A stretch of 27,402 nucleotides of DNA from an uncultured archaeon (lineage in GTDB: Archaea; Asgardarchaeota; Lokiarchaeia; Sigyniarchaeales; Promethearchaeaceae): positions 1 through 27,402 of the forward strand of contig CAZEPC010000015.1 in assembly GCA_964513765.1 (NCBI GenBank), in the 5' to 3' direction. Both the position numbers and the translations under genes were made by a program. Of the stretch, positions 13,414 through 14,661 are shown one piece after another (within the stretch, counting starts at the first letter, position 1; the number at the start of each line of letters is the position of its first letter). The notes under the pieces were generated by a model. It was not told where the DNA came from. It made no database searches and was given only the letters and a program-made list of their open reading frames with translations.

Positions 13414-13770
13414 ATGGCATATCACGAACCAGTTGATGAAATTGAACCTAAGGATAGAGATATCCATAGGGCATTGAATAGTTTAAAGGAAGAAATTGAG
13501 GCAGTAGATTGGTATCACCAAAGAGTAGTCACCACTACAGATGAATCCCTAAAAGGAGTTCTCGAACATAATAGAGATGAAGAAATTGAACATGCAACGA
13601 TGGTGTTAGAGTGGCTTCGGAGAAATATGGATAAATGGGATGAAGAAATGAAAACCTACTTCTTCACGGAGAAGTCAATCTTGGATGTTGAAGAGGAGGC
13701 TGAAGGAGAGAATGGGGACAATCATAGTAAAAGTCAGTCGAAATTGCATATTGGAAGTCTGAAAGAATAG
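13414..13770 (+). CDS. Encapsulated ferritin-like protein (EncFtn-type cargo) with a C-terminal encapsulin targeting peptide.
   Basis: It is 118 aa. The ferritin-like E/H motifs are 'EEIEAVDWYHQR' and 'EEIEHATMVLEWL' (ExxH). The C-terminus 'SKLHIGSLKE' matches the family-1 cargo-loading-peptide consensus (…LxIGSLK…). It sits 78 bp upstream of the encapsulin shell gene. Confidence 0.75.
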   Translation: MAYHEPVDEIEPKDRDIHRALNSLKEEIEAVDWYHQRVVTTTDESLKGVLEHNRDEEIEHATMVLEWLRRNMDKWDEEMKTYFFTEKSILDVEEEAEGENGDNHSKSQSKLHIGSLKE

Positions 13771-13775
13771 TAAAT

Positions 13776-13800
13776 AGAAAAAAAAGTCTCTTTTTTTAAA
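13776..13800 (+). terminator. T-rich tract between the EncFtn cargo and encapsulin shell genes. It may be a partial terminator or attenuator setting the cargo:shell ratio.
   Basis: 'gaaaaaaaagtctctttttttaaaaataa' has a run of 7 T 18 nt after the cargo stop. An A/T-rich TATA-like 'tttaaaaata' follows. Confidence 0.35.
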
Positions 13801-13848
13801 AATAACAGCAACATAATTGAAAAGAAAATAAAAAATTACACAAGAGGA

Positions 13849-14661
13849 ATGAAAATGGATATATTAAAACGAAATTTAGCACCAATCACGGATAAAGCGT
13901 GGGAAGAGATAGAAGACCTTGCTTCAGACATATTGAAAATTAAGTTGGCCGCTAGGCGATTTGTGGATGTAAGCGAACCAAAAGGAATGGACCACGGTGC
14001 AGAAATAGAAGGAAGATTACACATCCCGGAAAATCAGGATGAAGATGATGTGATGTATGGAGTACATAAGGTTTTACCACTAATTGAAGCCCGAAAATCT
14101 TTTACTCTGGATATTTGGGAGTTAGATAATATCGAAAGGGGTGCCAAAGATATTGATTTAGCACCATTAGAGGAAGCAGTATCAAAAATCGCCGATTTTG
14201 AGGATAATGCGATATTCCATGGAGTTGAGAATGCCAATATTGAAGGGTTAGTCCCAAGCACAAAGGAAAGAATAATATCGTGTAAGAAAACTTGCGAAGA
14301 CCTCCTGGCGAGCATTAACCAGGCAGTTACAACCTTCCAAAATGATGGAATTGGCGGTCCTTATTTGTTAGTAATAAATCCCGATGTGTGGCAAAACCTT
14401 CTTAAAGGATTCAAAGGATATCCACTTCGAAAGCATGTGTCAGGCATAACTAACGGAAGCATAGTATTCTCTGATAATATTAAGGGAGCATTTTTAGTCT
14501 CAGCGAGAGGCGGAGATTTTGAATTGATTTTGGGACATGATTATGACATTGGTTATGAAAATCATGATCATCAAGGAGTGCAATTGTTTATCTCCGAATC
14601 CTTCACATTCAGGATACTGGAACCCAAAGCAATAATAAAACTTCGTATCTCTTCAGAATAA
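13849..14661 (+). CDS. Family-1 encapsulin nanocompartment shell protein (linocin M18-like, HK97 fold).
   Basis: The 270-aa ORF aligns from my recollection along its whole length with Thermotoga maritima encapsulin. Matching blocks include 'FTLDIWELDNIERGAKDIDLAPLEEAV', 'IADFEDNAIFHG', 'DGIGGPYLLVINPDVW', 'RGGDFELILGHDYDIGYE' and 'VQLFISESFTFRILEP'. There is a GAGG Shine-Dalgarno-like sequence 8 nt upstream. Confidence 0.92.
   Translation: MKMDILKRNLAPITDKAWEEIEDLASDILKIKLAARRFVDVSEPKGMDHGAEIEGRLHIPENQDEDDVMYGVHKVLPLIEARKSFTLDIWELDNIERGAKDIDLAPLEEAVSKIADFEDNAIFHGVENANIEGLVPSTKERIISCKKTCEDLLASINQAVTTFQNDGIGGPYLLVINPDVWQNLLKGFKGYPLRKHVSGITNGSIVFSDNIKGAFLVSARGGDFELILGHDYDIGYENHDHQGVQLFISESFTFRILEPKAIIKLRISSE

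Follow-up and report, generated by a model that had tools for sequence, protein, structure and literature searches.

Thermotoga maritima encapsulin (maritimacin; PDB 3DKT, 7K5W, 7MU1) is encoded together with a ferritin-like cargo protein (Flp, also EncFtn), the cargo gene standing upstream of the shell gene, and its cages are loaded with about 4-5 cargo decamers per 60 shell subunits (PMC8346489). In Rhodospirillum rubrum EncFtn, the ferroxidase centre is formed by the ligands Glu32, Glu62, and His65, plus Tyr39, and secondary metal sites were described at the entry (Glu31/Glu34) and at an outer position (His57/Glu61/Glu64) (PMC5012862). Such Flp systems with a separate targeting peptide are mostly bacterial, and archaea typically possess the fused type (PMC11202242, PMC8346489). 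In the fused archaeal systems, such as Pyrococcus furiosus PfV (PDB 2E0Z) and those of Sulfolobus, shell and Flp are parts of a single polypeptide with a DxxxEExA/TH motif, and the shells are of the T=3 type (PMC11202242, PMC8346489). Here, we analysed the 27,402-nucleotide (nt) contig CAZEPC010000015.1 (assembly GCA_964513765.1), the whole of which is termed the window and which carries the same two genes as T. maritima in the same order. With a probability of roughly 0.9, this locus encodes an iron-storage nanocompartment of the classical family-1 encapsulin type, as in T. maritima and R. rubrum, with a cargo gene followed by a shell gene. An original prediction, made from the nucleotide sequence, had proposed a two-gene family-1 encapsulin system at this site, and this was borne out by profile matches of the shell protein to PF04454 and NF041155 and of the cargo protein to PF22277 and TIGR04535. 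All features of a family-1 EncFtn encapsulin that can be read from a sequence were found at the locus. As a system, it adds nothing new to encapsulin biology, and its sole unusual point is the probable Asgard host.

The cargo gene (13414-13770, + strand) encodes an EncFtn-type encapsulated ferritin-like protein of 118 amino acids (aa), which matches the Pfam family EncFtn-like PF22277 from end to end (E 1.3e-40; 137.5 bits at a cut-off of 27) and the NCBIfam model TIGR04535, "encapsulin-associated ferritin-like protein" (155.8 bits, cut-off 125). Its score against the EncB_fam model was under the cut-off (71.8 versus 90 bits), and it is therefore not of the Myxococcus xanthus EncB subtype. In a PDB search, R. 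rubrum EncFtn (Rru_A0973; PDB 5DA5; E 1.6e-29) and the EncFtn of the Haliangium ochraceum EncFtn/encapsulin system (7OE2, 7ODW; E 5.6e-28) were the closest solved relatives. The protein is composed of a two-helix ferroxidase domain (approximately residues 1-90), an acidic, disordered-looking linker rich in Gly, Ser, and Asn (approximately residues 91-109), which is shorter than that of R. rubrum EncFtn, and a short C-terminal peptide. The cargo motifs that the original prediction had quoted were found in the translation, namely EEIEAVDWYHQR at residues 26-37, EEIEHATMV at residues 56-64, and the C-terminal end LHIGSLKE.

We aligned 11 sequences, comprising the window protein, its counterparts from R. 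rubrum, H. ochraceum, and Thermotoga, and seven database homologues. In this alignment, E27, E57, H60, and Y34 of the window cargo correspond to the R. rubrum ferroxidase residues E32, E62, H65, and Y39, E26 and E29 to the entry-site residues E31 and E34, and H52, E56, and E59 to the outer-site residues H57, E61, and E64, and all of these positions are invariant. The Glu/His residues expected of an EncFtn ferroxidase are thus kept throughout, and the motif HNRDEEIEH is of the HxxxEExEH type. The ferroxidase, entry, and outer residues are identical in R. rubrum and H. ochraceum EncFtn, which also have a C-terminal GSL-type targeting peptide in common with the window cargo, although overall identity to these two proteins is only 45-48%. 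Identity to Thermotoga EncFtn P0097 was 63% over the whole alignment and 70% in the best local stretch. The best non-self relative of the cargo is 75% identical, followed by bacterial proteins at 60-70%.

Targeting peptides of family-1 encapsulin cargos follow the consensus L/F-x-V/I-G-S/T-L (PMC11202242), and a Gly-Ser-Leu-Lys motif is known as an encapsulin targeting signal (PMC5012862). The tail of the window cargo, L111-H-I-G-S-L116-K-E, is situated at the extreme C terminus and fits this consensus, as the original prediction had suggested, and the tails of cargo homologues are alike (LGIGSLK, MNIGSLKK, LNIGSLR, LDIGSLKQ). On the basis of the published consensus and these homologue tails, the peptide KLHIGSLKE (residues 110-118; 13741-13767, + strand) was annotated as the putative targeting, or cargo-loading, peptide. 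It differs from its T. maritima counterpart, with LHIGSLKE in place of LGIRKL. A regular-expression scan of all six frames detected no second open reading frame (ORF) with a targeting-peptide tail in the window, and EncFtn is therefore the sole recognisable cargo there.

Cargo and shell genes are adjacent and both on the + strand, the cargo gene coming first, with 84 nt between them. This cargo-then-shell order was found in every related locus that we fetched (L002, L004, L085, L086, and L087; the cargo gene of L086 is truncated by the contig end). Both ORFs were recovered on the + strand where the original prediction had placed them, except that the start of the shell gene probably needs to be moved. 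The mechanically called shell ORF spans 13849-14661 (+, 270 aa), and the second ATG at 13855 (MDILKR...) is a more likely start than 13849, because alignments with T. maritima encapsulin and with every close homologue begin only at residue 3 of this ORF, because a GAGG motif (13844-13847) lies 7 nt upstream of 13855 and only 1 nt upstream of 13849, and because related loci show a GGAG-type motif ahead of ATG-GAT-(A/T)T(T/A). Starting at 13855, the family-1 encapsulin shell gene (13855-14661, + strand) encodes 268 aa and is separated from the cargo gene by the 84-nt spacer.

The shell protein matches Linocin_M18 PF04454 (E 7.8e-82; 274.8 bits, cut-off 24.3) and, over model positions 1-261 of 261, the equivalog NF041155, "family 1 encapsulin nanocompartment shell protein" or encap_f1 (277.2 bits, cut-off 100), and it thereby passed the curated cut-offs of both encapsulin hidden Markov models. 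T. maritima encapsulin is 48% identical to the shell protein over the full length of 264 residues (E 1e-76), and thus closer than the H. ochraceum shell (40% identity). An AlphaFold2 model of the shell protein, obtained from a 45-sequence alignment, had a mean predicted local distance difference test score (pLDDT) of 93 and a predicted template modelling score (pTM) of 0.88, and showed an HK97-type fold like that of solved encapsulins, the fold defined by an N-terminal helix, a P-domain, an E-loop, and an A-domain. In a Foldseek comparison of this model with the PDB, T. maritima encapsulin ranked at the top, with template modelling (TM) scores of 0.93-0.94 and root mean square deviations (RMSD) of 1.4-1.7 Å (3DKT: TM 0.94, RMSD 1.4 Å). 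The earlier claim that the shell aligns block for block with T. maritima encapsulin is therefore supported by both sequence identity and model superposition.

Other T=1 shells, those of Klebsiella pneumoniae, H. ochraceum, Escherichia coli, Mycobacterium tuberculosis, and Brevibacterium linens, followed with TM scores of 0.90-0.92, and every one of the 27 best matches was a T=1 family-1 shell. For the T=3 and T=4 shells of M. xanthus, Quasibacillus thermotolerans, and Bacillus methanolicus, TM scores were 0.75-0.80 and RMSD values 4-8 Å. The modelled shell fold is thus T=1-like, and since it is nearer to T=1 than to T=3 or T=4 structures, we infer that the cage would be a T=1 assembly of 60 subunits with a diameter of about 24 nm. 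The Trp residue of the LD[IL]WELDN motif is kept in the shell protein (W88 here, W87 by count in T. maritima), and is probably equivalent to the flavin-binding Trp of encapsulin that is numbered W90 in a review (PMC11202242).

The HK97 fold is common to encapsulins and Duplodnaviria capsids, and on fold similarity alone an encapsulin therefore cannot be told from the capsid protein of a provirus with this fold or of a decayed prophage. A viral identity of the shell protein was nevertheless rejected as practically negligible in probability. The curated family-1 equivalog NF041155 was passed, T. maritima encapsulin is 48% identical over the full length, the gene immediately preceding the shell gene encodes a cargo with a targeting peptide, and the top Foldseek matches of the shell model were encapsulins only. 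Furthermore, phage morphogenesis genes (terminase, portal, protease, or tail) were absent from the 17 large ORFs of the 27-kb window, nor were any seen beside close homologues.

Nothing speaks directly against the assignment to the classical type, but several observations qualify it. The five-fold pore loop of the shell, LLKGFKG-YPLRK, is one residue shorter than that of T. maritima, FLKEEAGHYPLEK, and is Lys/Gly-rich, whereas the T. maritima loop is Glu/His-rich; it resembles the EFKG-YPLKK loop of the closest homologues. These nearest relatives are only 57-58% identical to the shell among 5.8 billion clusters, and when the shell protein was searched against GTDB species-representative genomes, no close relative was detected. 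The shell is therefore fairly divergent, so that its T number and pore properties are extrapolated from the described cages. Moreover, the GC content of the operon (35-37.5%) does not deviate from that of the window (37.1%), and this lack of a compositional anomaly argues against a recent transfer event.

A further point in this direction comes from a saltern-sediment contig (L001; JGI Ga0102929_1009945, 2562-5186), which is 99.96% identical to window positions 11257-13817. The identical part covers a metallophosphoesterase gene, the EncFtn gene, and the first 47 nt of the spacer, and breaks off at window position 13817/13818. Past this junction, the shell gene is missing from L001, which instead carries, on the minus strand, an ISL3-like transposase gene split into ORFs of 243 and 356 aa that overlap, followed by a gene for a GDSL lipase. 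The junction could stem from a rearrangement that an insertion sequence brought about in a variant strain, or from chimeric assembly at a repeated element, and the cargo-shell pair may not be intact in every strain. L001 would also suit the idea that the system is decaying or inactive, that is, a horizontally acquired remnant in which the cargo is retained and the shell is dispensable. We regard such a decay as very unlikely, because both ORFs in the window are of full length with all conserved residues intact and the intact pair or junction is present in two further assemblies (L002 and L003), while the L001 junction is itself possibly an assembly artefact at a repeated insertion sequence.

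The classical family-1 assignment also has to be set against the fused type that is typical of archaea. The archaeal Flp-fusion encapsulins share with the window system a PF04454 shell, an EncFtn-type ferroxidase domain, and the logic of iron storage. In contrast to them, the window system consists of separate ORFs, divided by a stop codon and the 84-nt spacer, has the HxxxEExEH motif, and is predicted to adopt a T=1-like fold. The shell match to 2E0Z was weak (E 1.2e-4). With two ORFs, the HxxxEExEH motif, and this weak match, membership in the Pyrococcus/Sulfolobus fusion type was rejected, and the statement in the original prediction that cargo and shell are separate here, unlike in the Pyrococcus fusion, stands on the two ORFs and on a motif that is not DxxxEExA/TH.

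Among archaea, a closer parallel is provided by the Asgard archaeon Nerearchaeum marumarumayae, in which an encapsulin (LOKIASV2_08240) and a ferritin-like protein were reported together with dense-cored cages of about 20 nm, visualised by cryo-electron tomography, and for which iron buffering and protection from Fenton chemistry were proposed (bioRxiv 10.1101/2025.07.22.663070). In that system, too, the encapsulin is unfused and T. maritima-like and is associated with a ferritin-like protein, and its host is a member of the Promethearchaeota from a saline, iron-containing mat or sediment. The lineage of the window is only distantly related to the available metagenome-assembled genomes (MAGs) of Promethearchaeota, with amino acid identities of 37-67% between syntenic genes. 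A census of more than 6,000 encapsulin systems from 2021 does not mention Asgard archaea in its main text, a 2025 preprint terms its encapsulin the first in Promethearchaeaceae (10.1101/2025.07.22.663070), and encapsulins have since been cited as known in Asgard archaea. The window thus contributes the same bacterial-type module in another, distantly related Promethearchaeota genome, a kind of system that is still rare in this host group.

By analogy with the described cages, 60 copies of the 268-aa HK97-fold shell protein would self-assemble into a T=1 cage of about 24 nm. The 118-aa EncFtn would dimerise on iron and form D5 decamers, with di-iron centres built from E27, E57, H60, and Y34 at the subunit interfaces, and the acidic flexible linker together with KLHIGSLKE would anchor each decamer in a hydrophobic cleft at the luminal side of the shell. 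Fe2+ entering through the shell pores would be oxidised by EncFtn and deposited as a mineral core in the lumen, and the expected outcome would be iron buffering and less Fenton chemistry. In anoxic, saline, iron-rich sediments, an organelle of this kind might help the cell to handle iron and oxidative stress. The divergent shell (at most 58% identity among 5.8 billion clusters) from a mesophile could also be of value for encapsulin engineering.

Assignment of the host is of particular relevance, as a bacterial or mis-assigned contig would make the locus just another EncFtn operon of bacteria. A bacterial source would fit with the exclusively bacterial affiliation of the named relatives of both proteins, with an outer-membrane efflux protein gene in one related locus that has a 68%-identical EncFtn (L004), and with the Shine-Dalgarno-like motif ahead of the shell gene. 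Against this, the window is a single continuous contig, and eight of its genes, which flank the operon to the left and right, are syntenic with those of the Promethearchaeota MAG contig JBQSIG010000120.1 (L088) at 37-67% amino acid identity. Counterparts on that contig encode an MFS (major facilitator superfamily) transporter, an SNF2 helicase, a 351-aa protein, an MFS-like protein, proteins of 195 and 163 aa, and a membrane pyrophosphatase.

The flanking genes are of a housekeeping nature (carAB, the membrane pyrophosphatase gene, iolG, and a gene for a geranylgeranyl-reductase-family protein, GG-red-SF, below the cut-off); the last fits an archaeal host without being proof of it. Among GTDB species representatives, carB matched best to a Promethearchaeota MAG (64%), then to Bathyarchaeia (57-58%) and the DPANN group (Aenigmatarchaeota), before any bacterium. 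In addition, the flanks are joined to the operon in three independent assemblies (the window, L002, and L003) at 99.8-100% identity. For a 632-aa membrane protein (9758-11656), a search of 5.8 billion clusters gave only seven relatives, the sole named one being from a Promethearchaeota MAG. An identical cargo gene is present in IMG metagenome 3300007712, sampled from sediment at a depth of 5-15 cm in an unrestored hypersaline salt pond in South San Francisco Bay. Taken together, a bacterial or misplaced contig appears highly improbable, and very probably the host belongs to the Asgard archaea (Promethearchaeota) and lives in hypersaline sediment. It would thus be a mesophilic archaeon of halophilic sediment, whereas T. 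maritima is a thermophilic bacterium.

The named relatives of cargo and shell belong to Bacteroidales, Synergistales, Calditrichia, Spirochaetota, Thermotoga, and KSB1, all of them bacterial. The closest shell homologues are encoded on two short contigs (L085 and L086) with a GC content of about 31%, and a Pfam scan of the genes beside these shells found LarC-like and beta-helix/NosD proteins only, which carry no taxonomic information. On a JGI contig more closely related to the window (L091), carB is accompanied by genes for a 383-aa protein, an ATP-binding cassette transporter, a 12-transmembrane-helix (12TM) protein, an MFS-like protein, and proteins of 350 and 188 aa. In the window, iolG, the encapsulin pair, and the membrane metallophosphoesterase gene lie between carB and the MFS-like gene. 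Gene order in the window and in L091 differs at this site, and the operon therefore occupies a variable slot between conserved blocks. Because the named relatives are bacterial, the unfused type is mainly bacterial, and the slot is variable, horizontal acquisition of the operon from bacteria is most likely. The presence of the module at such a slot in another, distantly related Promethearchaeota genome supports the view that a protein organelle passed from bacteria to Asgard archaea repeatedly or long ago.

Transcription of the operon might involve archaeal signals. The divergent intergenic region ahead of the cargo gene (127 nt, 13287-13413) contains A/T-rich TATA-like stretches, such as CTTTTTTAAG at 13374-13383, about 35 nt ahead of the EncFtn ATG, and is a candidate archaeal promoter. 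The spacer between cargo and shell (13771-13854, + strand) contains an A8 run (13778-13785), GTCTC, a T7 run (13791-13797), an A/T-rich TATA-like stretch (approximately 13793-13805), and the Shine-Dalgarno-like GAGG (13844-13847). The oligo-T tract between the genes that the original prediction had noted is thus present, and it distinguishes this spacer from that of T. maritima. The spacer is also 2-3 times longer than in four related loci (84 versus 25-41 nt). Between positions 13200 and 14800, sigma-70 promoter sites were no more frequent than in shuffled sequence and intrinsic hairpin terminators were absent, and the potential A8/T7 hairpin of the spacer was not significant upon folding (-2.6 kcal/mol, z = 0.95). 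A bacterial-type terminator or attenuator in the spacer was therefore rejected.

Archaeal RNA polymerase terminates at oligo-T, and the spacer may act as a leaky terminator of the archaeal kind, as an internal promoter, or in both ways. The locus would then not be a simple bicistronic operon: with the T7 run, 21 nt past the cargo stop codon, acting as terminator and the A/T-rich stretch as internal promoter, separate or attenuated transcripts would set the cargo-to-shell ratio. Besides the length of the spacer, this proposal draws on the distribution of sense-strand T runs of at least five nucleotides, whose density on this contig is about sixfold higher within 80 nt past stop codons than in coding sequence, and on a similar T7 tract past the shell gene (14700-14706, +). 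The latter, a candidate terminator of the operon, is situated 39 nt past the shell stop codon within the 3' end of the convergent iolG-like gene. L085, the closest low-GC relative, has a T6 run right after the cargo stop codon.

However, the T. maritima load of 4-5 decamers per 60 subunits implies a required ratio near 1:1 (PMC8346489), and attenuation past the cargo gene would lower shell output. In addition, T7 runs in intergenic DNA are not rare at 35% GC, and the A8/T7 hairpin lacks significance. Transcription in separate or attenuated units is thus a minority possibility. The suggestion in the original prediction that the tract tunes the proportions of the two proteins is plausible, if on the unlikely side, and gains some plausibility from the archaeal host and from the oligo-T runs that mark gene ends in this contig.

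It is tempting to speculate that a deep-branching Asgard lineage of hypersaline sediment took up a bacterial unfused EncFtn operon into a variable slot and subsequently re-wired it, with the spacer, expanded to 84 nt, providing an oligo-T terminator and an internal TATA-like promoter for separate or attenuated transcription. This combined scenario is doubtful, somewhat more so than the separate transcription of the two genes taken by itself. If true, a second, independent Asgard lineage would possess iron nanocompartments, and a bacterial organelle module would have been domesticated by relatives of the eukaryotic ancestor.

The gene adjoining the divergent intergenic region encodes a membrane-anchored calcineurin-like metallophosphoesterase of 501 aa (11781-13286, - strand), which is divergent from the EncFtn gene across the common 127 nt. 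Calcineurin-like metallophosphoesterases use di-metal centres, often containing iron. The pairing of this gene with EncFtn was also seen in L001 and is absent from the other encapsulin loci, and a functional link between the two is unsupported. Further away from the operon, a conserved three-gene block (8018-11656, - strand) encodes the 632-aa MFS-like membrane protein, which has a soluble C-terminal domain of about 130 aa, and proteins of 351 and 190 aa. These three proteins had no significant Pfam match, and occurrences of the block are confined to a few metagenome contigs, either of Promethearchaeota or unassigned.

Neither RNA families (Rfam) nor tRNA genes (ARAGORN) were detected in the window. 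A non-coding gap of 610 nt (23135-23744) upstream of the membrane pyrophosphatase gene contains several A/T homopolymer runs, and no Rfam family, tRNA, or ORF of at least 110 aa was found in it. An SNF2-family helicase of 1,232 aa (4307-8005, + strand) showed sub-threshold similarity to DISARM DrmD, RapA, and DpdE (NCBIfam, 245-317 bits, all below the cut-offs), and its synteny in Promethearchaeota MAGs makes a housekeeping remodeller likelier than a mobile defence gene. Two MFS transporter paralogues are arranged in tandem (136-1983 and 2002-4260, + strand). They are 80% identical over 615 aa, and at the C terminus both continue into a cytoplasmic extension of about 400 aa that is rich in helices. 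Promethearchaeota MAGs have a single orthologue at the syntenic site (755 aa, with a faint coiled-coil Pfam match), and the duplication therefore appears to be specific to the lineage of the window.

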